This document shows, in pieces, positions 1 to 62,703 of a stretch of 64,000 nucleotides of DNA (within the stretch, counting starts at the first letter, position 1; every line of letters begins with the position of its first letter). The stretch is taken from the NCBI RefSeq assembly GCF_055900595.2, contig NZ_CM148325.1; one strand, given 5' to 3'. Under the pieces are notes generated by a model. It was not told the DNA's origin and made no database searches. It was given only the letters and a program-made list of their open reading frames with translations. Both the position numbers and the translations under genes were made by a program.

Positions 1-126
1 CAGATATCTTGTCGCACCTGTTTTCGCTTCCAGTTGTCGTAACGTCTCGCGCCCGCTCTGTCGCACGAGTTCGACAACCTGCCTCTTAATTTTTTCCCGC
101 TCTTCCTGTGTAAATACTTTTTTCAC
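1..126 (-). CDS. Hypothetical phage protein, partial (3-prime end cut by window edge)
   Basis: GTG at 126 preceded by AGGAGG (131-136, minus strand); open to window edge; translation VKKVFTQEEREKIKRQVVELVRQSG... Confidence 0.35.
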   Translation of the reverse strand, partial: MKKVFTQEEREKIKRQVVELVRQSGRETLRQLEAKTGATRYL

Positions 127-155
127 AAGTCCTCCTGAAAAATCTCCTTCACAAT

Positions 156-821
156 TCATACAAAACCAGCCGCTTTCCGGCGTTCATACTCCTGTTTCAG
201 CAACTCAATTGGCGTTGGTCCCGACGGGCGTTTGGGGGCAGCCAGTTGTCGCCGGACTGGCGGAACGCTGAGGCCCATACCAACATGCTTTGACCATTTC
301 GTCAGTTGCCGTTCTGCAAACCGTTTTAACTCCCCTTCGGTCATCTGGCGTTCAATCCCCTTTGAACGCATCTCGAGGCATATGTGATACAGCACAGGCT
401 GAGACCACGGGTATTTATCGCTTCCGTCGTATCGCCAGGACTCATTGCGCCAGCGTCGGTACTCCTCCATCACAGCCCCCACCGTCAGACCGAATGGATT
501 GGCCCCGCTTTCCGGAATCAGTGCCACAAACTCAGCCAGGTCAGGAGGCCATGTTTCACCCGCCCGGCAGCGGTCCATGCACTGGCGGCAGACCTGCCGG
601 ATTTGCTGCTCAGTCATCGCGCCAATCTGTGCAATCCAGAGCTTCGAAGGTGCGGCCCCGTTCTTCCGGGTCCAGCGGTCCGAATAAACCTCCCCCATGA
701 GTTCCCACAGCTTCCAGGCTGTTTCCGTCGCTGATAAATCCGTTTTCACGTTCCCACTGCTCACGTGCTGCCCGAATTTCCTGAACTGCCCGTGATGCGG
801 TGCCACCTGGTGCTGCTGCAT
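156..821 (-). CDS. Replication protein P-like (DnaB helicase loader family)
   Basis: 221-aa ORF; C-terminal half resembles lambda P (YPW...LY...M motif region); AAGGGGG RBS before ATG at 821; alternative in-frame starts at 698 and 617. Confidence 0.55.
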   Translation of the reverse strand: MQQHQVAPHHGQFRKFGQHVSSGNVKTDLSATETAWKLWELMGEVYSDRWTRKNGAAPSKLWIAQIGAMTEQQIRQVCRQCMDRCRAGETWPPDLAEFVALIPESGANPFGLTVGAVMEEYRRWRNESWRYDGSDKYPWSQPVLYHICLEMRSKGIERQMTEGELKRFAERQLTKWSKHVGMGLSVPPVRRQLAAPKRPSGPTPIELLKQEYERRKAAGFV

Positions 822-1650
822 GGTTCACCCCCTTGCTGACTGGTTTAACCTGCGCCCTGACGTGATTTACGTGACGGGCGAATTTCTGCTCCCACTGAAC
901 CTGTGTGAACACTTTCCCCTCCGCCATCCAGTAATCCCGGAAGGCGGCAAGTTCAGCAGGTGTAAATTCCGGTTCCGGCAAAGCCGCTCCCCACAACGCA
1001 GCCCGCCGTCGAAAATCCAGCGACGGATGCCAGCCATCGGTCATCGGAAATTTTCCGATGGGTTCGCTCAGGCCATCCAGGAATACAGGGGGGGCTGCCT
1101 GTAACGACAAAACTTCCTGCTCACTGATCGGAGCACTCTCGCGTGTGTTATGTGTGGGGTTTAGATCTTTGGGTTCCTTTGGGTTCCGTGATCCGTTTTT
1201 GGGTGTCTTTGATGGAAAATTTGGGTGTTTTTGGTTATTTTCCATGCAGCTAAGAGTTCCGTTTTTGGGTCTGTTTTGTGCTGAAACATAACCATTTTCG
1301 GTACTGTTTTTATTAACAGCACCAATTTTACCCTCCTTTAAAGACTCCCGTTTTTGGGTGTATTCAGGCTCTGCAACGCTTTCTTCTACACCGATAAGTC
1401 GGTACACCACGATTTGCTTTGTTCGGCCTTTTCTCTCACCGGTATCAACAATTAACCCAATCTCCATCAGGTGTCGTAAGCTGTCCTGCACAGTCTTTTT
1501 GTTCAGTTCCGTTACTTCTGCCAGTGCAGATACAGACGGGTATGCACACAAATCGGCACCGCACATATCAGCAAGCCAGGTCAATACTGACTTACTGGAT
1601 GAACTGCCGGTTTTCACCTTTTTAGCCCATCGTAGTGCATCGATGCTCAT
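610..1650 (-). CDS. Replication initiator, O-like: N-terminal HTH, Lys/Asn/Pro-rich linker, C-terminal DnaT-like domain
   Basis: ATG at 1650 with AGGAG RBS; N-terminus MSIDALRWAKKV... HTH-like; C-terminus FTPAELAAFRDYWMAEGK resembles DnaT C-terminal domain; iterons lie inside the linker coding region. Confidence 0.65.
   Translation of the reverse strand: MSIDALRWAKKVKTGSSSSKSVLTWLADMCGADLCAYPSVSALAEVTELNKKTVQDSLRHLMEIGLIVDTGERKGRTKQIVVYRLIGVEESVAEPEYTQKRESLKEGKIGAVNKNSTENGYVSAQNRPKNGTLSCMENNQKHPNFPSKTPKNGSRNPKEPKDLNPTHNTRESAPISEQEVLSLQAAPPVFLDGLSEPIGKFPMTDGWHPSLDFRRRAALWGAALPEPEFTPAELAAFRDYWMAEGKVFTQVQWEQKFARHVNHVRAQVKPVSKGVNHAAAPGGTASRAVQEIRAAREQWERENGFISDGNSLEAVGTHGGGLFGPLDPEERGRTFEALDCTDWRDD
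1160..1365. repeat. Putative phage replication origin iterons (TTTGGGT-core repeats) followed by AT-rich stretch
   Basis: TTTGGGTTCC at 1168-1177 and 1178-1187; CCGTTTTTGGGTGT at 1193-1206 and 1349-1362; CCGTTTTTGGGTCT at 1259-1272; TTTGGGTGTTTTTGG at 1220-1234; AT-rich 1290-1345. Confidence 0.45.
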
Positions 1651-2173
1651 ACGAACTCCTGGCAGACATTTGTTTATCTGCAAAGTAATATTGATATTGC
1701 TGACGATACGCATGCTTGAAAGCAATAGCTTTTTCTATAAGCTCGTCAGTCTCACGTTCCACAACAGATGGATCCGCAAAAAGCAGCCCGGACTCCACCA
1801 CATCGCCATATTCTTTGTTTAACCCGGCGATCATGTACGTAATGCTTTTTCCGTCAGTAATTTCACAATACAACCTGAAATCGCTGATCCGGATAGCCTC
1901 CATAATTGCCGGAATCAGCGCCGTGAATTTTTCCCGCTTATCCCTGGTGTCGATAGCTTTCCAGCGTTCGAATATCTTCACCCGGTTAACGCCCAGCGCC
2001 CGTTGATCAACCTCGCCATCATTAAACGTGACGCGTTGAACATCGATGTTCGGGCGTTCTTTCAGAGCCCAGAATGCTTCCGTGATTAATATCGTCGCCT
2101 GCTCCTGTGTCATTCCTGGTCGGCATACCCAGGCATCCAGAGCCTCACAAACCTGTTCAGGGGTGATTTTCAT
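1622..2173 (-). CDS. YdaT-like protein (Rac prophage ydaT family), downstream of cro-like gene
   Basis: 183-aa ORF; N-terminus MKITPEQVCEALDAW resembles Rac YdaT; overlaps the cro-like stop and the O-like start. Confidence 0.5.
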   Translation of the reverse strand: MKITPEQVCEALDAWVCRPGMTQEQATILITEAFWALKERPNIDVQRVTFNDGEVDQRALGVNRVKIFERWKAIDTRDKREKFTALIPAIMEAIRISDFRLYCEITDGKSITYMIAGLNKEYGDVVESGLLFADPSVVERETDELIEKAIAFKHAYRQQYQYYFADKQMSARSSYEHRCTTMG

Positions 2174-2384
2174 TGTTCAACCGCCCCGCCCGCTTCGTCT
2201 TACGATATTCGTCATAAACTTTGGGGTCGTACTGAAGTTCCCCGCCAGATGCCTCTTGCAGGCGCATCGCGCGACCTTCAGGAACCAGTTCTCCCCATTG
2301 AGAAACAGCAGATGGATCAACACCAGCAGCTTTCGCTACTTTGGCTTTCGTCCCATAAAAATTAATTACGTCTGATTTAAACAT
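2157..2384 (-). CDS. Cro/YdaS-like HTH DNA-binding protein
   Basis: ATG at 2384 with GGAGGGG RBS; small HTH protein (AKVAKAAGVDPSAVSQW) divergent from the repressor gene. Confidence 0.6.
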   Translation of the reverse strand: MFKSDVINFYGTKAKVAKAAGVDPSAVSQWGELVPEGRAMRLQEASGGELQYDPKVYDEYRKTKRAGRLNNENHP

Positions 2385-2461
2385 CACCCCTCCAAAGTTG
2401 AGTTTTCTCAATGGTAATCACTCAAGGAATCTCAAGCCAAGGGTTATTAAGATATCTAAAT
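2385..2461. promoter_or_regulatory. Divergent immunity promoter/operator region (OR-like)
   Basis: 77-bp gap between divergent cro-like and CI-like starts; palindrome TTGAGTTTTCTCAA at 2398-2411 plus repeated CTCAAG half-sites at 2421-2436. Confidence 0.4.
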
Positions 2462-2869
2462 ATGAACGAGAAAACTTTAGGTCAACGAATTAGAGAAAGA
2501 CGCAAACAGGTTGGTTTAAGTCAAAACGATTTAAGCAAAGCTGCTGGCGTATCTGGCTCATCAATTTCACTATGGGAAAGCGACCATACAGCCCCGCGCG
2601 GGCAAAATTTGCATCGCCTGGCTGAGGTATTGCAATGTTCACCAACTTGGATACTGTTTGGTGACGAGGATAAAACACCAGATCCACCAGTTGCACTCAA
2701 CAGCGCCTTAGACTTATCGGAAGATGAGTTGGAGATGTTGCGATTGTATCGCGCACTTCCAAAATCAGAGCAGCAAGCACAAATCAGCGAACTCCGTGCC
2801 CGCGTTGAGAATTTTAATCGCCTATTCACCGAGCTACTAGAAGCTCGCAAACGTAACAAACATCAATAA
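2462..2869 (+). CDS. CI-like phage repressor, XRE-family HTH, no S24 peptidase domain
   Basis: HTH motif GLSQNDLSKAAGVSGSSISLWE; 135 aa; C-terminal helical region only; divergent from cro-like gene. Confidence 0.65.
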   Translation: MNEKTLGQRIRERRKQVGLSQNDLSKAAGVSGSSISLWESDHTAPRGQNLHRLAEVLQCSPTWILFGDEDKTPDPPVALNSALDLSEDELEMLRLYRALPKSEQQAQISELRARVENFNRLFTELLEARKRNKHQ

Positions 2870-2931
2870 CCCCCCTTCACAAATTTTAAAGCCTTACATT
2901 TCAATGTATTGGCTTTATTTTGCATTAAATA

Positions 2932-2982
2932 TTGAGTTTTCTAATCAAAACACTTGACCAATTTTCATGAGAAAACTAAATT
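2932..2982 (+). promoter_or_regulatory. Candidate PL-like promoter with operator (OL-like)
   Basis: TTGAGTTTTCT at 2932-2942 repeats the OR motif; -35 TTGACC 2954-2959, 17-bp spacer, -10 TAAATT 2977-2982; inverted repeat AGTTTTCT (2935-2942) / AGAAAACT (2970-2977). Confidence 0.35.
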
Positions 2983-3063
2983 ACCATCCATCAAGACACC
3001 GCACGGTGTTCTCAGCAAACAGTTCCGCTACCCCGGCGTTAAGGGGAAACAGAGGATTTCTCA

Positions 3064-3420
3064 GTGGGCGAAGTCAAACATCAGAATGGAAGGCATCCCG
3101 GGATCGGCAAAGAAGCAGCAATGGCGCTTTATATTGACATCAGCGCCATTGCCGGACAGGTAAGAATTATCAGAGCGGTAACTAAGCGGTATGTGCCTTT
3201 ACTTCAGAAAGGCTCCGGTGATTACACCGAAGATATTGTCAACGATTTCCTCATCGAATTGCGAGGACTCATCTTCAGTTACAAGGTGACCACAATTTTT
3301 GCAGATGGCTCCCGCGAAACTGTCAGAGCCCTGCGGCTTAAAGGATGTGTCGAAGACTTCGCCACCACATTCTGGGCAAGAAAACTTGATTGTATTCATA
3401 ACCAATTTCCTCTCGGGTAA
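3064..3420 (+). CDS. Hypothetical protein, first ORF downstream of candidate PL (N-gene position); mutually exclusive with the antisense ORF 3199-3399
   Basis: GTG start with AGAGGA RBS 7 nt upstream; 118 aa; orientation fits the rightward early operon; no recognisable family. Confidence 0.35.
   Translation: MGEVKHQNGRHPGIGKEAAMALYIDISAIAGQVRIIRAVTKRYVPLLQKGSGDYTEDIVNDFLIELRGLIFSYKVTTIFADGSRETVRALRLKGCVEDFATTFWARKLDCIHNQFPLG
3199..3399 (-). CDS. Small zinc-ribbon protein (CPECGG...CKNCGH), candidate moron; mutually exclusive with 3064-3420
   Basis: ATG at 3399 with AGAGGA RBS 8 nt upstream; two CxxC pairs 17 residues apart; 66 aa. Confidence 0.4.
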   Translation of the reverse strand: MNTIKFSCPECGGEVFDTSFKPQGSDSFAGAICKNCGHLVTEDESSQFDEEIVDNIFGVITGAFLK

Positions 3421-4016
3421 CAGACCCCTCAGAGGATACCACCTCGCCTGACGTGGTTAAAAGCAGGCACACAACACGAAAGCGCACGGCGAGGTAGCTG
3501 GTTCATATATAGCCTGTCGTTAAATTTTCGTCGACCGTGCGCTTCCGGTTGTGGCACTCCGCGAAATGGCGCGGCGGTAAGCATGGCGGGGTTCCCTTCC
3601 CCTTGAGGACACCGGGTTGTCAGGTTGACCATGCGCCTGAGTGACAACCCCGCTGCAACGCCCTCTGTTATCAATTTTCTGGTGACGTTTGGCGGTATCA
3701 GTTTTACTCCGTGACTGCTCTGCCGCCCTTTTTAAAGTGAATTTTGTGATGTGGTGAATGCGGCTCAGCGCACGCGGAACAGTTAAAACCAAAAACAGAG
3801 TTATGGGTGGATTCTCTGTATCCGGCGTTAATTGTTAACTGGTTAACGTCACCTGGAGGCACCTGGCACCGCATCAACAAAGTTCACTTCGGTGATGAAA
3901 GGTAAGAGAAAATGTTGAATGTAGCTATTGAAAACCAGTACGGGTGGAATTATAGTGCACCTGCACCTCATAAAACGGGTGCCGGGCGTGGAAACCCGAA
4001 AGTTACTCGAGCGCAT

Positions 4017-4039
4017 AACCGCGCCGAAGCGGTTTTTTT
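4017..4039 (+). terminator. Candidate rho-independent terminator upstream of the Rha gene
   Basis: AACCGC-GCCGAA-GCGGTT hairpin followed by TTTTT. Confidence 0.4.
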
Positions 4040-4208
4040 ATGCGTAATGCACAGCCACATTCAGATAATGGTGGGGCGTGCAGGGCAGCTGCAAGGCTGG
4101 CCGGGTTCTCGAGTGACCGGTATTTCCACCCCTGTACGTCTCGCCACCCTTATGGTCGTGGAAAGCCTCGGTGGTGAGTTAATTAACTTAACACTTGAGG
4201 ATGCCATC

Positions 4209-4760
4209 ATGGCTACTACCCTTACCCTTTCTCACCCTGACGTAACCATTGAAAATGGTCGCGCTGTCACTACGTCTATTGCGATCGCAGAATTCTTCGG
4301 CAAGCAGCATCACCATGTTGTTCAAAAAATAGAGGCCCTCGAATGTTCTGAACGCTTTTTAACCAGCAACTTTTCGCGGGTTAAATTCGAGCACCGTGGC
4401 AATACCTACAATGCCTACCAAATCACCAAAAACGGCTTCGTTTTCCTGGTGATGGGCTTCACCGGCAAAAAGGCCGCTGCATTCAAGGAAGCCTACATTG
4501 CCGAGTTCGACCGCATGGAGGAAGAACTGCGCCGGAATAACACCACACCCGCTGACAAAATAATCCCGGGTGATGGCCGCACCCTGGTTATCCGCTTCGA
4601 CGAACACGGCTACATCAAATTCACCGAAACCGTTCCTGATGGCGCACTGGTCTGTACTCTGGATACTTTCCGTTTTTATCTGGAAAAGCAGGGATGGACT
4701 CTCATAAACCGGGGCGCAATTAAAAATATGACCGTCGAGCAGTTGCTGAGTATTAAATAG
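4209..4760 (+). CDS. Phage regulatory protein, Rha family (antirepressor-like)
   Basis: N-terminus TTSIAIAEFFGKQHHHVVQKI matches Rha-domain signature; GAGGA RBS before ATG 4209; in-frame ORF is open upstream to 3912, so the start is uncertain. Confidence 0.6.
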   Translation: MATTLTLSHPDVTIENGRAVTTSIAIAEFFGKQHHHVVQKIEALECSERFLTSNFSRVKFEHRGNTYNAYQITKNGFVFLVMGFTGKKAAAFKEAYIAEFDRMEEELRRNNTTPADKIIPGDGRTLVIRFDEHGYIKFTETVPDGALVCTLDTFRFYLEKQGWTLINRGAIKNMTVEQLLSIK

Positions 4761-4805
4761 TTTTCTGGAATTTCCTTCATATCACAAATTATTAAGGAGA
4801 TTATT

Positions 4806-5027
4806 ATGATTGCTCATCACTTCGGAACCGATGAAATACCACGCCAGTGCGTCACTCCCGGCGATTACGTTATTTACGAAGGCCGGACATATGTTGCATC
4901 GGCAAACAATATCGAAAAGCAAAAACTTTATATCCGTGATTTCACTACAAAAACATGCATTACTGACCGCATGATTAAAGTCTTCCTCGGTCGTGATGGT
5001 TTACCTGTAAAGGCGGAGGCATGGTGA
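4806..5027 (+). CDS. Hypothetical small phage protein
   Basis: ATG preceded by AAGGAG at 7-nt spacing; 73 aa; no recognisable family. Confidence 0.55.
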
Positions 5028-5146
5028 GCTGTAATAAATAACTGACCCAATACGACATTCAGCTTAATAAATACATAAGGGTCGATTCTTATATGCCAGC
5101 AATGGCAGGGATTCGCACAACCTTAAAACAGCAATGAGGTTTATCA

Positions 5147-7600
5147 ATGAGCACTGATAAAGAAACTTTTGCGCTATATTGCGAAGCTAAAAATGACAAA
5201 GTCAGAAAACGCCTTGGGATTAAAGGTGGTTTTTACTGGACTACAGCAAAAAAATTATCTGTTGCCATCTCCCGCTGCATTACCGCAATGGATGATAACG
5301 ATTATGATGAAGACGACTTTAAAAAACCTGTTCGCGTCCATTTGCCCGTTGTTGATGACCTTCCACCGGAAGGCGTGTTTGATACCGAATTCTGTAACCG
5401 GTATGAAAAAGGCGGCGAAGATGGCATCACAATGATATTTATCGCGCCTCCGCCATCCGCGCAGGACAAACCAGCCAGCACTGACAACACCAATGTTAAT
5501 GGCGAAGACATGACTGAGATTGAGGAGAATATGCTTCTGCCGGTTTCAGGTCAGATTCTGCCTGTTCGCTGGCTGGCGCAACACAGCGGCGAAAAACCAG
5601 TAACGCACGTTTCGCGGGATGAACTGCGCTCATTACATAACGCACAGGAAGAAAAACTTCCCGCCGTTACCGCGCTGGCCATCTCAAATAAAGCAGCGCA
5701 ACTCGAACCGCTGGAGATTCGGGATTTGTACAAACTGGTGCGGGACACTGACAAAGTTTTTCCCGCCCCCGTAAATTCAGACCTGGGACTGATGACCTCC
5801 TTCATCGAAGCATACCTGGACGCTGACTACACTGATCGTGGTCTGCTTACAAAAGAGTGGATGAAAGGAAATCGTGTTTCTCGCATCAGTCGCACACCAT
5901 CCGGCGCTAACGCTGGCGGCGGTATTCTTACCGATCGCGGCGAAGGTTTTGTGCATGATAATGCGTCAATGGCATTCGATGTTGCTACAGGAAAACTGGC
6001 TCGTTCGATGGATGTGGATATTTACAACATGCATCCTTCACATACCAGACGTGTTAACGAAATTATCGCAGAAAATGATCCCTGTTTCTCCGTCTTCCTT
6101 AAGGCTTTTCTGAACATGCCAGGCGGGATGGATTATTCCCGCGCCATCGTGGTTGCCTCCGTGAAAGAAGCACCGGTTGGTATAGAGGCTATGCCCCACC
6201 GCGTCACCGAATACCTGAATAAAGTGCTGACCGAAACCGATCATGCCAACCCTGATCCGGAAATCGTGGATATTGCCTGCGGTCGTTCCTCTGCCCCAAT
6301 GCCGCAGCGTGTAACAGAAGAAGGAAAACAGGATGATGAAGAAAAACCGCAACCGTCTGGCGCAATGGCAGATGAACAGCCAACGACTGAAACAGTGGAA
6401 CCGGATACAACTGAACATCATCCGGACACGCAGCCGCTGGATGCTCAGCCGCAGGTGAATTCTGTTGATGCGAAATATCAGAAACTGCGGGCAGAACTCC
6501 ATGAATCCCGGAAAAACATTCCGCCCCAAAATCCTGTCGACGAAGACAAATTGCTGGCAACCTCTGGCGGAGAATTTGCTGAAGGGATTAGCGACCCGAA
6601 TGATCCGAAATGGGTGAAGGGGATTGAAACCCGCGATTCTGTGAACCAGAACCAGCAAGAATCGGAACAGAACGACCAGAAAGCGGAAAAAAACAGCCAA
6701 AATGCGTTACAAAACGAGCCAGAAACGAAACAATCCGAACCAGTAGCGCAACAGGAACCGGAAAAAGTCTGCACCATCTGCGGTCAGAGCGGTGTCGGCA
6801 ACTGTCCTGATTGTGGCGTGGTGATGGGCGACGCAACATACCAGGAAATGTTCGATGAAGATAATCAGCCTGAAGTTCAGGAAAATGATCCAGAGGAAAT
6901 GGAAGGCTCTGCGCATCAGAACAAGGAGAACTCTGGCGGCAATCAGCATCATGCCAGCGATAGTGAAACTGGCGAGACGGCAAATCCCTTAATTAAGATA
7001 ACCAGTCATCACAAATATAAGTCCACAAGCAAAACGTGGTATCACCTGATGATCGACCTTGAAACAATGGGAACCAACACCAATGCACCCATAGTAGTTA
7101 TTGGTGCGGTTTTCTTCGACCCGGAAACAGGGGAAATCGGGCCGGTATTTTATATCGTTATCAGCCTGACTGACGCAATGAATACAGGGGCTGTTCCTGA
7201 TGGTGGCACCATCGAATGGTGGCTGAAGCAGTCCAGCGAAGCCAGAGCTGCCATTTTAACTGACCAGGTAAAAATGAAAGATGCCCTTTTGCGTTTTCGG
7301 GAATTCGTCAATGAACACTCTGATGAAAAATTCGTTCAGGTGTGGGGTAATGGCGCAACGTTCGATAACGCAATTTTGCGCACCTCATACGAACGTCTGG
7401 ACATCCCCTGTCCGTGGCATTACAGCAACGATCGTGATGTACGCACAATCGTTGAGATGGGGAAAATCACAGACTTCAATGCCAGAAGCGTAATTCCATT
7501 CGAAGGCGTGCGCCATAATGCTCTGGATGACGCTCTTCACCAGGCAAAATACGTAACAGCCGCTATACAAAAACTGATCCCGAATCAGGCTGATTTTTAA
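5147..7600 (+). CDS. Exonuclease: RecE (exonuclease VIII) N-terminal-region homolog fused to a C-terminal DnaQ-like DEDDh 3-prime-5-prime exonuclease domain
   Basis: 817 aa; middle region ([19 protein letters not shown]...[43 protein letters not shown]) matches the RecE N-terminal part as recalled; C-terminus has [15 protein letters not shown] and HNALDDA motifs; acidic linker with CTICG-x7-CPDCG zinc-ribbon-like motif. Confidence 0.75.
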
Positions 7601-7664
7601 TGTTCAACCCCGGTCGTCGCCCACCGGCTATAGTGGCGGCGACCATGATTAGCGAACGACGCTC

Positions 7665-7913
7665 ATGGCAAGACTTATTCTGCTCACTGAGTGGGCAAAA
7701 GAGGAATTCAGTGAACCGGTCCCTAGTCCGGGTACGTTAAGTAAATACGCTAAAGCCGGAATGATATTTCCTCTCCCCAAAAAAGTAGGAAGGCACTGGC
7801 GAGTGGATCCACGCGCTCGCTTTGTCGGAATGGTAAACAAGCCGGAGGTGATCGCCACAGATCACCCTGCTTTGAAGAGGATACTGGAAGATGGCGCGCC
7901 CGCGAAAATATAA
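7665..7913 (+). CDS. xis: Excisionase (lambda Xis-like)
   Basis: 82-aa ORF overlapping the int start; LTEW...IFPLPKKVGRHWRV resembles lambda Xis. Confidence 0.55.
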   Translation: MARLILLTEWAKEEFSEPVPSPGTLSKYAKAGMIFPLPKKVGRHWRVDPRARFVGMVNKPEVIATDHPALKRILEDGAPAKI

Positions 7914-9021
7914 AACCGATGTTCCGGGTTTATCTCCGTATTTTGACAAAAGAAATAACAAAGTTTACTGGCGTTACAGGCATCCCATCACAGGTAAAAA
8001 TCATGGACTCGGCAGTATTGACCAGAAACTGGCGGAAACCATTGCAGCAGAAGCGAACAGCCGTCTTGCCAGACAACAAATGGAGCAAATGCTCAGTCTG
8101 CAGGAGAAAATTATTAGTGATACCGGCGGCGCATCAACCGTTTCCATTTTTCTGAATAATTACAGAAAAATTCAACAGGAAAGATATGAGAACGGAGAGA
8201 TCAAACTCAGCACGCTGAAGCAAAAAGCGGCTCCTCTCAGGGTGTTTGATGAACGTTTTGGAGCCAGGCCGCTAGATGCCATAACCGTAAAAGATGTGGT
8301 ATCGGTGCTGGAAGAATACAAGGCAAAGGGACATAACAGAATGGGACAAATTTTCAGGAAGGTATTGATCGATGTTTTCCGGGAGGCTCAACAAACGGGT
8401 GATGTTCCGCCAGGCTTTAACCCGGCTGAATCGGCAAAAAAACCGCAAGTGCGGATATCAAGACAGCGACTGACTTTTGATGAGTGGATGATGATTTATA
8501 ACGCAGCGGAAAAGGATGGTTACTTTTTACAGCGCGGCATGCTGCTGGCACTGATGACGGGCCAGCGTCTTTCGGATATTTGCAAAATGCAGTTTTCGGA
8601 TATCCGGGATGGTTACCTTCATGTCGAACAGCAAAAAACAGGAGCCCGGATAGCCATTCCTCTGGCTCTGCGTTGCGACAAATTAAATCTTACCCTGGGT
8701 GACGTGGTGTCATCCTGTCGTGATTACATCCTTAGTCCGTGGTTATTGCACCATCATCACGCTAAGGGGATGGGTAAGCGCGGCGGGATGGTTAAACCAG
8801 CAACATTAACAGTCGCATTTAAAAAAGCCCGGGATTCTGTGGATTACAACTGGCGTGCTAATGGCACGCCACCCTCTTTCCATGAGCAAAGATCTTTATC
8901 AGAACGATTGTTCAGAGAACAGGGAATTGATACCAAAATTTTGCTGGGCCATTCGAATCAAAAAATGACCGATATTTACAACGACGCACGCGGTAAAGAG
9001 TGGAAAAAACTGGTTATTTGA
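7891..9021 (+). CDS. int: Tyrosine recombinase, lambda-family integrase
   Basis: 376 aa; conserved R...HxxR...Y catalytic region (GQRLSDICKMQFSDI, FHEQRSLSERLF, LLGHSNQKMTDIY) similar to lambda Int. Confidence 0.85.
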   Translation: MARPRKYKTDVPGLSPYFDKRNNKVYWRYRHPITGKNHGLGSIDQKLAETIAAEANSRLARQQMEQMLSLQEKIISDTGGASTVSIFLNNYRKIQQERYENGEIKLSTLKQKAAPLRVFDERFGARPLDAITVKDVVSVLEEYKAKGHNRMGQIFRKVLIDVFREAQQTGDVPPGFNPAESAKKPQVRISRQRLTFDEWMMIYNAAEKDGYFLQRGMLLALMTGQRLSDICKMQFSDIRDGYLHVEQQKTGARIAIPLALRCDKLNLTLGDVVSSCRDYILSPWLLHHHHAKGMGKRGGMVKPATLTVAFKKARDSVDYNWRANGTPPSFHEQRSLSERLFREQGIDTKILLGHSNQKMTDIYNDARGKEWKKLVI

Positions 9022-9061
9022 TAACCAGTTTTGCAGAAGAGTTTTGCAGAGGTTTTGCAGA
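9008..9061. repeat. Candidate attL arm: 10-bp perfect inverted repeat over the int stop plus three tandem GTTTTGCAGA direct repeats
   Basis: AACTGGTTAT-TTG-ATAACCAGTT at 9008-9030; GTTTTGCAGA at 9028-9037, 9041-9050, 9052-9061; lies between int stop (9021) and ompW stop (9067). Confidence 0.3.
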
Positions 9062-9822: not shown

Positions 9823-10061
9823 TTTAGAAGTTGCACTGGAAATCCTGGTTAATGTGATTTAAATCAATTTTTAAATATTTTCGCTACGCAAATATTAACT
9901 CGCTCGCCACTTGCAGCGGTTTGCCCACGCCTGAAGGCCAGCAATTACCTCCGCTTTACAAAGATATGCTTTTCCATACAAGACCTGATGCTGCCACCCG
10001 AGGCTTAACCAGGGTACAATTGCCCGCTAATTAACACCTGCATAAAACTCAAGGAGAGTGC

Positions 10062-62587: not shown

Positions 62588-62703
62588 GTCGTTGTCTGCG
62601 GCATTTTTGCCGAGTGCCGTGTATAATAGGCAAAGTTATTTCCATTTCTGCAATCTGTTAGCAATAACAGGTTGATTATTAAGATATTAAGGTGATTTAA
62701 ATC

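Follow-up and report, generated by a model that had tools for sequence, protein, structure and literature searches.

A probable DicA/DicC-type immunity switch with its own predicted operator in an ompW-integrated lambdoid prophage of Escherichia coli

We analyzed a 64,000-nt stretch of DNA (hereafter referred to as the window) and found that a divergent regulatory region in it is very probably the immunity (lysis-lysogeny) switch of an ompW-integrated lambdoid E. coli prophage, and a heteroimmune sibling of the dicA-dicC-dicBp region of Qin. The flanks are lambdoid, with O, P, and Q on one side and kil, an exonuclease gene, xis, and int beside ompW on the other, and the cassette is present in 796 of 5,426 complete E. 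coli genomes (~15%) as well as in the sequenced phages HannyBb and mEp460_ev081, the latter being a functional temperate phage (PMC10448788). The locus is an ordinary DicA/DicC-type member with its own operator sequence, none of this reading is new, and its closest model is Qin dicA/dicC, not Rac. Family membership, domain content, site positions, conservation, and replacement in heteroimmune relatives were read directly from the sequences and models compared here.

The repressor gene (2462-2869, + strand) encodes a 135-aa protein of the DicA family, composed of an HTH domain (residues 6-66), a linker, and helices at residues 87-98 and 101-134. The protein matched the NCBIfam model NF007257 (DicA) over its full length (238.3 bits, cutoff 101, positions 1-135 of 135), and seven aligned homologues are 128-135 aa long. 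Its Pfam matches are confined to HTH families (HTH_3, 3.2e-16; HTH_31; HTH_19), with no Peptidase_S24 match even at E values up to 10; matches in a PDB sequence search stop at residue 72, and the N-terminal domain of P22 C2 (1adr) was matched at E = 2e-15. The AlphaFold2 model (mean pLDDT 84) predicts five helices, as in DNA-binding domains of the P22-C2/434 type, a linker, and two further helices, with the C-terminal ~50 residues all-helical, and Foldseek placed this predicted structure on the P22 c2-operator complexes 3jxb and 2r1j with TM scores (target) of 0.95-0.97, an rmsd of 0.7-1.1 Å, and 48% identity. These results agree with the first-pass annotation, which had described an immunity region with a peptidase-less CI-like repressor consisting of an HTH and a short helical tail: the protein is a full-length DicA-family member, the profile search found no S24 domain, and the predicted fold is an HTH plus two helices. 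The self-cleaving S24 class was ruled out for this repressor by the permissive Pfam search, the PDB search, and the AlphaFold2 model.

Because no S24 peptidase domain is present, RecA cannot make the repressor cut itself. A short repressor that does not cut itself is already known for the DicA family; DicA has no Ala-Gly site for cleavage; it binds Oc, keeps dicBp and dicC repressed, and is an activator of its own gene (PMC10448788, PMC3441716). We also considered direct inactivation by RecA-stimulated self-cleavage or a host protease, with no antirepressor involved. UV induction is on record for the Cronobacter phage phiES15, whose repressor is of the DicA type, and heat and urea derepress K-12 dicBp without Rem or RecA, possibly via repressor instability (PMC10448788). 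However, the ~50-residue all-helical tail is too short for an S24 fold, for which Pfam gave no match, and Gifsy repressors of this class stay uncleaved during induction (PMC3121763), which makes direct inactivation extremely unlikely.

Opposite the repressor gene lies a Cro-like gene of the DicC type (2157-2384, - strand; 75 aa; ATG at 2384). Its product had been called YdaS-like, a label we replaced: the match to YdaS_toxin (2.8e-4) is far poorer than those to Pfam P22_Cro (1.3e-17) and to the NCBIfam DicC model NF007282 (167.8 bits, positions 1-75 of 75). The second gene of the rightward (PR) operon (1622-2173, - strand) encodes a YdaT/CII-like regulator according to Pfam (YdaT_toxin, 1.4e-5), PHROG (163, CII-like activator, 1.2e-41), and the PGAP annotation of strains Ch1 and GF4 (YdaT family protein); the YdaT-like gene proposed to follow Cro was thus recovered. 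The arrangement had further been likened to Rac, whereas the proteins match DicA/DicC models rather than RacR/YdaS. The Pfam names YdaS_toxin and YdaT_toxin, together with weak NCBIfam matches of the repressor HTH region to the antitoxin families HipB/Y4mF and MqsA, might instead point to a YdaS/YdaT-type toxin-antitoxin or stress module with the HTH protein as antitoxin or regulator. This is very unlikely, given that P22_Cro and DicC are much better matches for the Cro-like protein, that YdaT has been characterized as a CII-like transcription factor (PMC11879457), that the flanks are classically lambdoid, and that the cassette is carried by HannyBb and mEp460_ev081. The toxin-antitoxin reading was dropped in favor of Cro and CII analogues.

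We then examined the DNA to which the repressor is predicted to bind. One motif had been proposed at both OR and OL, and TTGAGTTTTCT indeed occurs exactly at 2398-2408 and at 2932-2942, both on the + strand. Its one-mismatch copy TTTAGTTTTCT lies at 2970-2980 (- strand), and the sole further match in the 64 kb with at most one mismatch is at 10042. The 14-mer at 2398-2411 reads TTGAG-TTTT-CTCAA, with inverted arms of 5 bp on either side of a TTTT centre that is not palindromic, and so is not strictly the palindrome described earlier. Two-mismatch sites of this 14-mer were found at 2932-2945 (TTGAGTTTTCTAAT) and, on the opposite strand, at 2967-2980 (TTTAGTTTTCTCAT), the latter being a third copy brought out by the scan that the first-pass annotation had proposed. 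The core 8-mer AGTTTTCT has six copies in the window, all within 2401-4766, against 1.86 expected in 64 kb, and four of the six fall within 2401-2977.

The case for these predicted operators is positional and comparative, and is not one of raw counts. Window-wide, the 14-mer with up to three mismatches is not enriched (7 found vs 6.9 expected), and four matches to the 11-mer with up to one mismatch were reached in 6 of 100 shuffles. Such counts would suit a chance AT-rich sequence, or a site for another factor such as a nucleoid protein; H-NS/Cnu, Fis, and Hfq have been reported to affect the Qin locus (PMC3441716, PMC10448788). However, all three of the best copies fall within the two control regions, placed relative to the promoters just as the operators of Qin are, and an exact 11-mer common to the 77-bp divergent region and the 194 bp 3' of the repressor gene arose in only 0.6-1.3% of shuffles (local P 0.006-0.013 for this first pair alone). 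Moreover, the sites are conserved islands between variable flanks in 80 related loci, and heteroimmune relatives that differ in recognition helix also differ in the repeat. A chance or unrelated origin of the motif is therefore very improbable, and we regard the copies as predicted operators. The heteroimmune relatives (Qin, PPompW, and Klebsiella, Stenotrophomonas, and Cronobacter phages) carry other repeats at the same positions, namely TTGTTAGTCATAACTAACAA at OR and TGTTAG repeats at OL in Qin, CTTAG-N6-CTAAG in PPompW and Klebsiella, TGTTAG-N6-CTAACA in Stenotrophomonas, and CTAAC-TTTT-GTTAG in Cronobacter, and their recognition-helix sequences differ in step with these repeats.

The best predicted operator, OR1 (TTGAG-TTTT-CTCAA, 2398-2411), is favored by the motif scan, by conservation, and by the matching position of Qin Oc, a site with experimental support (PMC3441716); its position is 13 bp upstream of the ATG of cro, and one of its bases also belongs to the PR -10. 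On the other side of the repressor gene, the predicted operators OL1 (2932-2945, + strand) and OL2 (2967-2980, - strand) bracket the predicted promoter PL, with OL1 ending 8 bp upstream of its -35 and OL2 overlapping its spacer and -10; OL1 and OL2 are spaced by 35 bp here, as they are in Qin and PPompW. Across 80 IMG/VR loci whose repressors are 99-100% identical, operators and promoter hexamers are near-invariant, while positions 2397, 2950-2952, and 2962-2966 vary. Only three changes were counted across the 14 columns of OR1 (flanking positions 2397 and 2413 vary) and five across the 14 columns of OL2, and OL1, supported by both the motif scan and conservation, reads TTGAGTTTTCTCAT in 78 of the 80 loci. 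Both PL hexamers are near-invariant in this set, with a hypervariable spacer at 2962-2966.

Weaker matches suggest two additional sites between OR1 and the repressor gene. Candidate OR2 (2422-2435, TCAAGGAATCTCAA) matches at 9 of 14 positions with a perfect right arm, and lies 24 bp from OR1, a spacing (24-26 bp) also present in the PPompW type. Candidate OR3 (2447-2460, TTAAGATATCTAAA; 10 of 14), which we take to resemble the P22 operator TTAAG-ATAT-CTTAA, ends 1 nt before the repressor ATG, holds the candidate -10 of the repressor promoter (TAAGAT, 2448-2453), and is invariant in 50 unique sequences (49 variants plus the window). The geometry at the repressor start, a -10, 8 nt, and ATG with no Shine-Dalgarno sequence, is common to the PPompW, Stenotrophomonas, and Rac442 types. 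For K-12 DicA, the analogous Om and Oa sites are not bound on their own in vivo (PMC3441716). A fourth core copy, AGTTTTCTC on the - strand (2467-2480), sits inside repressor codons 2-7 with 10 of 14 matches to the operator, and has no consistent counterpart among the heteroimmune types compared.

PL, the dicBp equivalent, reads TTGACC-17-TAAATT (2954-2982, + strand); the good -35/-10 pair noted beside the second motif copy was recovered by the consensus scan (9/12), and it aligns with K-12 dicBp. The putative PR, the dicCp equivalent (2411-2440, - strand), has a -35 of TTGGCT (2440-2435), an 18-bp spacer, and a -10 of TACCAT (2416-2411), and its layout is that of the K-12 dicC promoter mapped by 5'RACE (PMC3441716). 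The window copy falls below the threshold of the consensus scan because of a C at 2437 and a G at 2413; the hexamers in relatives are TTGACT and TACTAT, with T at 2437 in 80 of 80 related loci and A at 2413 in 72 of 80. Three features of the switch are unique or almost unique to this strain: the PR -35 down change, the OL1 change, and a change of 1 bp in spacing. Two near-identical prophages differ from this one by 14 changes, four of which lie in switch DNA, and this clustering, based on a comparison of three genomes, hints at selection on prophage regulation.

Downstream of the repressor gene, a terminator-like hairpin followed by a U-rich stretch was found by RNA folding (2880-2922, + strand; -12.3 kcal/mol, z = -4.3), and none of 200 shuffles folded as well. 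The conserved PL leader (2989-3062) folds no better than shuffles (z = -0.7) when considered as a structured RNA; a GACACC/GGUGUU hairpin does form in it. Farther along the PL operon, the DicF sRNA (3677-3728, + strand) was matched over its full length by Rfam RF00039 (76.7 bits, gathering 48).

From these features we infer operator binding, promoter use, and an induction route as follows. The DicA-type repressor, probably a dimer, would bind TTGAG-N4-CTCAA through its P22-C2-like HTH. At OR1, which abuts the -10, it would cover the PR start region and keep cro(dicC)-ydaT-O-P off, and from the same site it may stimulate its own weak and probably leaderless promoter, by analogy with K-12 DicA at Oc; with the degenerate sites at 2422-2435 and 2447-2460 added, OR would be tripartite, as in lambda. 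At OL, occupancy of the sites that bracket the PL -35 and overlap its -10 would silence an operon comprising DicF, a dicB remnant, an isrK/C4-Rha module, kil, the exonuclease gene, xis, and int. Derepression would then come from an antirepressor or from a flip of the repressor/Cro bistable switch, with Rem as the best-supported candidate.

The first-pass annotation had argued that induction would need an antirepressor or another signal, in line with publications on the DicA family (PMC3121763, PMC10448788). Relief of non-cleavable DicA/Gifsy-type repressors by antirepressors has been described, and the small repressors of the Gifsy type lose activity through antirepressors without being cleaved (PMC3121763); Rem derepresses dicBp 165-fold, and DicA/DicC forms a bistable switch (PMC10448788, PMC3441716). 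Rem, which is not a Rha protein, is the antirepressor demonstrated for DicA and by analogy the best-supported candidate here. A rem gene is annotated in the prophages of Ch1 and GF4, which are 99.8-99.9% identical; that of Ch1 is intact, encodes a protein 95% identical to K-12 Rem, and lies ~5.7 kb left of the repressor, beyond the window edge, whereas that of GF4 is a pseudogene with an internal stop. Since rem is outside the window and a pseudogene in GF4, the prophage may be non-inducible. No LexA box had been seen by eye in 2870-4210, and a scan for CTGT-N8-ACAG with up to one mismatch likewise found none there; across the window and the Ch1 prophage, including upstream of rem, LexA-box matches were at chance level and none lay at a relevant promoter. 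An SOS link is unsupported, and the lack of a LexA box agrees with dicBp not being induced by mitomycin C in K-12 (PMC10448788).

A second possible antirepressor lies within the PL operon. The Rha gene placed 1.3 kb downstream was confirmed at 4209-4760 (+ strand), 1.34 kb past the repressor stop codon, as a Rha-family, AnrP-like candidate (TIGR02681, 88.7 bits; PHROG Rha and anti-repressor Ant; locus layout). It is the last gene of an AnrP-like module controlled by isrK/C4 RNA (3928-4151, + strand) with its own promoter (TTGAAA-17-TATAGT, 3928-3956; 10/12 in the consensus scan), isrK (3963-4039; Rfam, 67.2 bits, gathering 50), a terminator (4017-4034), and a C4-like RNA (4064-4151; 73.8 bits, gathering 45). 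The ORF at 3912-4760 is continuous in frame, with the leader fused through the Rha ATG at 4209, and PGAP calls a single 282-aa Rha protein.

We weighed whether this Rha-family protein is the cognate antirepressor of the repressor, gated by the isrK/C4 RNA and not by LexA. In its favor, isrK and C4 score above gathering directly upstream, next to a strong promoter-like site and a terminator; PHROG anti-repressor Ant matches span residues 12-118; in Gifsy-1, expression of the anti-repressor-like protein from the homologous isrK-orf45-anrP locus increases transcription of the antQ operon (PMC4825925); and Fels-1 FsoA illustrates that an antirepressor under phage-repressor control can act on the repressor of another prophage (PMC3121763). 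On the other hand, the published evidence for AnrP as an antirepressor is indirect (PMC4825925), the proven antirepressors of this class are the small proteins Rem, GfoA, and GftA (PMC10448788, PMC3121763), and the Rha gene itself sits inside the repressed PL operon. Among sequenced phages, only its N-terminal domain is widely shared with annotated antirepressors, and the module is ~84% identical to part of Stx2a phages. A cognate role for Rha is therefore doubtful, and Rem is preferred. A broader scheme by analogy, in which the isrK/C4-gated Rha, transcribed from its own promoter, would be a second antirepressor of the DicA-type repressor, with the switch opened by RNA-RNA pairing without SOS, locked open in feed-forward manner once PL is active, and perhaps under current selection, is somewhat less likely still.

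The value of this analysis lies mainly in annotation: gene starts are fixed, and the names DicA-type repressor, DicC-type Cro, and YdaT/CII-like regulator are assigned. About 15% of complete E. coli genomes carry this immunity type, for which a concrete predicted operator, TTGAG-N4-CTCAA, is now given; reporter assays could be designed around it, and it may help to sort E. coli prophages into predicted superinfection-immunity groups. A literature search for the operator string found no paper that contains it, and mEp460 turned up mostly as a prophage-finder label. In several heteroimmune relatives, the operator and the recognition helix vary in concert, and the geometry of the promoters is constant.

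We finally compared the locus with known systems, beginning with its closest model. In Qin the genes have the same order and orientation; the repressor is 135 aa and the Cro-like protein 75/76 aa long in the two loci, and both proteins match the DicA and DicC models over their full length. In either locus the best operator is 13-14 bp from the cro ATG and adjoins the PR -10, a pair of operators spaced by 35 bp brackets the -35 of a TTGACC promoter and overlaps its -10, and the PL leader is near-identical, with DicF downstream. In contrast, the repressors are only 54% identical, with the recognition helix SGSSISLWE here and SHVSVSQWE in Qin, and the operator is TTGAG-TTTT-CTCAA rather than TTGTTAGTCATAACTAACAA. 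Here, moreover, dicB is a remnant followed by the isrK/C4-Rha module and kil, and the rightward operon still holds ydaT, O, and P.

P22 operators, 18 bp in length, have two 5-bp arms around four central bases (TTAAG-ATAT-CTTAA). The likeness to P22 immC extends to the Cro-like protein, which belongs to Pfam P22_Cro, and to the repressor N-terminal domain, 48% identical and predicted to superpose at ~1 Å on the c2-operator complexes. The proteins differ beyond it, C2 having 216 aa, an S24-type C-terminal domain, and RecA-stimulated cleavage (PMC3121763), whereas the repressor here ends in a 50-residue helical tail. By published description, GfoR, GtgR, and GfhR of Gifsy-1/-2/-3 are likewise small (~136 aa) non-cleavable lambdoid repressors, with which DicA and RacR were explicitly grouped by the authors (PMC3121763). 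The trans-acting Gifsy antirepressors can act across heteroimmune repressors, and here Rem is 95% conserved alongside repressors that are 54% identical; the antirepressor genes are LexA-controlled in Gifsy, whereas scans of the prophage part of the window and of the surroundings of Ch1 rem gave no LexA box.

The Rha module resembles isrK-orf45-anrP of Gifsy-1 and immI of P1 (c4-icd-ant) in its promoter, isrK with terminator, C4-like RNA, and Rha/Ant-type gene (PMC4825925). Unlike in the Gifsy-1 locus, the leader ORF is fused to the Rha gene, with no AUGA stop/start overlap, a fusion also reported for S. dysenteriae (PMC4825925), and in contrast to both systems the module is part of a PL operon and has a DicA-type immunity region as its neighbour. 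In Rac racR-ydaS-ydaT, too, the repressor and Cro genes diverge and a gene for the CII-like YdaT comes next (PMC11879457), while the proteins here match DicA/DicC, not RacR/YdaS (YdaS_toxin, 2.8e-4). Finally, SinR-SinI and the SPbeta-group repressor-AimX pair likewise combine an HTH with a C-terminal helical oligomerization region and inactivation by a small protein, not by cleavage; full-length Foldseek matches to these systems (1b0n, 9iaq, 9sf2) have an rmsd of 8-9 Å and 18-23% identity, and the resemblance is one of design that does not argue for homology in the tail.

The window derives from E. coli: the left arm of a lambdoid prophage, inserted next to ompW, occupies positions 1-9040, and beyond it lies chromosome carrying ompW, yciC, yciB, yciA, and tonB. 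This prophage stretch is 99.8-99.9% identical to the prophages of strains GF4 and Ch1. The minus strand carries P-like (156-617), O-like (610-1650), YdaT-like (1622-2173), and Cro-like (2157-2384) genes, and the plus strand carries the repressor gene (2462-2869); all these gene starts are consistent with the family models and with the PGAP annotation of the near-identical genomes. Earlier TTG/ATG starts at 2411 from the ORF list were discarded. Within the DicA/DicC family, the locus is an ordinary heteroimmune representative. Among 5,426 complete E. coli genomes, 796 contained its cassette (2385-2990, at least 80% coverage), which was also present in phages HannyBb and mEp460_ev081, with immunity DNA 91.7% identical to 2100-3049; the HannyBb repressor shares 96% protein identity, and mEp460_ev081 has been noted to be functional and to carry homologues of dicA, dicC, dicF, and rem (PMC10448788).

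The repressor is a full-length match to the NCBIfam DicA model (238 bits; cutoff 101), and its residues 1-72 matched the P22 C2 DNA-binding domain (E = 2e-15). The first-pass annotation had described a peptidase-less HTH protein with a short helical tail, and this description held: the Pfam search returned HTH families only and no Peptidase_S24, and the AlphaFold model (pLDDT 84) shows residues 6-66 as a five-helix domain, joined by a linker to helices at 87-98 and 101-134. In Foldseek, the N-terminal domain fitted P22 c2-operator complexes at about 1 Å, and the full-length protein gave only loose matches, to SinR-SinI and SPbeta-group repressor-AimX complexes. The Cro-like protein had been called YdaS-like, but its match to YdaS_toxin is weak (2.8e-4) and DicC (168 bits) and Pfam P22_Cro (1.3e-17) describe it better. 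The gene that follows is indeed YdaT-like (1.4e-5), and its PHROG annotation as a CII-like activator agrees with the published CII-like role of YdaT (PMC11879457).

The string TTGAGTTTTCT is found exactly at 2398-2408 in the divergent region and at 2932-2942 downstream of the repressor gene, as originally noticed, and a motif scan added an overlooked third copy with one mismatch at 2970-2980 on the opposite strand. The corresponding 14-mer sites are TTGAGTTTTCTCAA (2398-2411), TTGAGTTTTCTAAT (2932-2945), and TTTAGTTTTCTCAT (2967-2980, minus strand). Their form is an asymmetric TTTT flanked by two inverted 5-bp arms, so that the palindrome proposed at 2398-2411 is borne out in its arms but is not strict, because its centre is asymmetric. 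Six copies of the core AGTTTTCT, against 1.86 expected, are present in the 64 kb, all within 2401-4766, and an exact 11-mer common to the divergent region (77 bp) and the 194 bp past the repressor gene arose in 0.6-1.3% of shuffles. Whole-window counts of the 14-mer with three mismatches allowed showed no enrichment; since these raw counts are at chance level, the operator case rests on position and comparison. The operator string itself had no match in the literature searched. A fourth core copy, GAGAAAACT (2467-2480), lies within repressor codons 2-7 and agrees with the operator at 10/14 positions; no consistent counterpart was found in the heteroimmune relatives compared.

Both comparative tests say that the repeats are operators, as judged from sequence. 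Across 80 IMG/VR loci encoding a repressor 99-100% identical to this one, almost no change was seen in any of the three sites or in the promoter hexamers, with variation in neighbouring positions (2397, 2413, 2946, 2950-2952, and 2962-2966). In heteroimmune relatives, the architecture is kept and the repeat is changed. Qin, the cryptic K-12 prophage, has TTGTTAGTCATAACTAACAA as its experimentally supported operator Oc (PMC3441716), which corresponds in position to the best site here (2398-2411), immediately adjacent to the PR -10 and 13-14 bp away from the ATG of cro; two TGTTAG sites in Qin, 35 bp apart, bracket the same TTGACC promoter. The repeat is CTTAG-N6-CTAAG in the PPompW and Klebsiella types, TGTTAG-N6-CTAACA in a Stenotrophomonas phage, and CTAAC-TTTT-GTTAG in Cronobacter phiES15. 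The recognition helix differs in accord with the changed repeat, reading SGSSISLWE here and SHVSVSQWE, AHVTISQWE, or SSVSVFKWE elsewhere. Overall, the sites, protein families, and comparative tests confirmed the initial observation and supported its interpretation.

A promoter scan recovered the -35/-10 pair reported beside the second motif copy, namely TTGACC-17-TAAATT at 2954-2982 (PL); the 2932-2945 site stops 8 bp 5' of its -35, and the 2967-2980 site overlaps its spacer and -10. Between the repressor gene and these sites lies a terminator-like hairpin (2880-2922, -12.3 kcal/mol, z = -4.3). PR, the promoter of the cro operon, probably consists of -35 TTGGCT (2440-2435), an 18-bp spacer, and -10 TACCAT (2416-2411), with TTGACT and TACTAT as the hexamers in relatives. 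One base is common to PR and the best operator, an overlap also seen with the mapped K-12 dicC promoter (PMC3441716). Degenerate candidate sites follow 24 and 25 bp further on (2422-2435 and 2447-2460), the latter ending 1 nt 5' of the repressor start codon. Site spacing is the same in the PPompW type, in which the arms of the third site are perfect. Within 2447-2460, TAAGAT lies 8 nt ahead of the repressor ATG, which has no Shine-Dalgarno sequence, and the same geometry (TAGAAT-8 nt-ATG) recurs in the PPompW, Stenotrophomonas, and Rac442 types. This recurring arrangement suggests that the repressor transcript may be leaderless, like that from lambda PRM.

Across 9.1 kb compared among the window, GF4, and Ch1, 14 variable events were found, four of them in about 140 bp of operator/promoter DNA of the switch (2422, 2437, 2943, and a 1-bp deletion at 2946). 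The 2437C variant converts the PR -35 from TTGACT to TTGGCT and weakens it (T in 82/82 other copies), the deletion is confined to the window relative to 82 other copies, and 2943A, at position 12 of the 2932-2945 site, is common to the window and GF4 only. These four differences could reflect selection on the switch, in a small sample of three genomes.

As to induction, DicA has already been reported to lack the Ala-Gly cleavage site and to be shorter than C2, and Lemire et al. placed DicA and RacR among small non-cleavable repressors inactivated by antirepressors (PMC3121763). In Qin, Rem derepresses dicBp 165-fold, and DicA/DicC form a bistable switch flipped by heat or urea (PMC10448788). 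Genes for Rem, the published DicA antirepressor, are annotated in both near-identical prophages. The Ch1 copy (L085 3332-3583) lies about 5.7 kb left of the repressor, a place equivalent to one beyond the window's left edge; it is intact and has 95% identity to K-12 Rem, against only 54% between the two repressors. The GF4 copy (L091 1331-1582) has an internal stop. The Rha protein is a second candidate antirepressor, sharing only its N-terminal domain with annotated antirepressors. No LexA box had been seen by eye in 2870-4210, and a scan allowing up to one mismatch likewise found none, either there or 5' of rem in Ch1. In the window, CTGT-N8-ACAG is matched exactly at two places only, 1304-1319, inside the O-like gene, and 62655-62670, in the chromosome far from the prophage, and the total count is at chance level.

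The PL operon opens with a conserved leader (2989-3050), which, in contrast to the operators immediately 5', is near-identical in Qin and PPompW, both heteroimmune types. It contains a hairpin (GACACC-GCAC-GGUGUU) and CCCC-N8-GGGG, its overall fold was no better than that of shuffles (z = -0.7), and it may serve as a processing or nut-like site. Overlapping ORF calls on opposite strands follow, on which the Ch1 and GF4 annotations differ: a 118-aa plus-strand ORF (3064-3420; PHROG 21318, 2e-61), annotated as a gene in GF4, and a 66-68-aa minus-strand ORF with CxxC...CxxC (3199-3399 or 3199-3405), an ECs_2282 family putative zinc-binding protein by PGAP in Ch1. Full-length DicF sRNA (3677-3728; Rfam, 76.7 bits) is followed by a short dicB remnant only (about 3808-3882, PGAP annotation of Ch1). 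Next come isrK RNA (3963-4039, Rfam), which has its own terminator and its own strong promoter-like site (3928-3956, 10/12 in the promoter scan), and a C4-like antisense RNA (4064-4151, Rfam) directly 5' of the Rha-family gene, which the first-pass annotation had placed downstream of the repressor and which spans 4209-4760. A sub-threshold c4-a1b1 target match was also seen at 3950-4002. Beyond these lie kil (4806-5027), encoding an FtsZ inhibitor of the Kil type (73 aa; NCBIfam PRK11354, 151 bits), an exonuclease gene, and then xis and int, with coordinates transferred from the Ch1 and GF4 annotation. Kil, 3' of the Rha gene, and DicF thus bring the number of cell-division inhibitors in the PL operon to at least two. 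The isrK/C4 segment resembles the P1 immI / Gifsy-1 isrK-like module, here inside a lambdoid PL operon, and its isrK-to-Rha layout is like that of the Gifsy-1 isrK-orf45-anrP locus (PMC4825925). The Gifsy-1 leader ORF ends in an AUGA stop/start overlap, whereas its orf45 equivalent here continues in frame into the Rha gene to form a 282-aa ORF (3912-4760), the long form given by PGAP.
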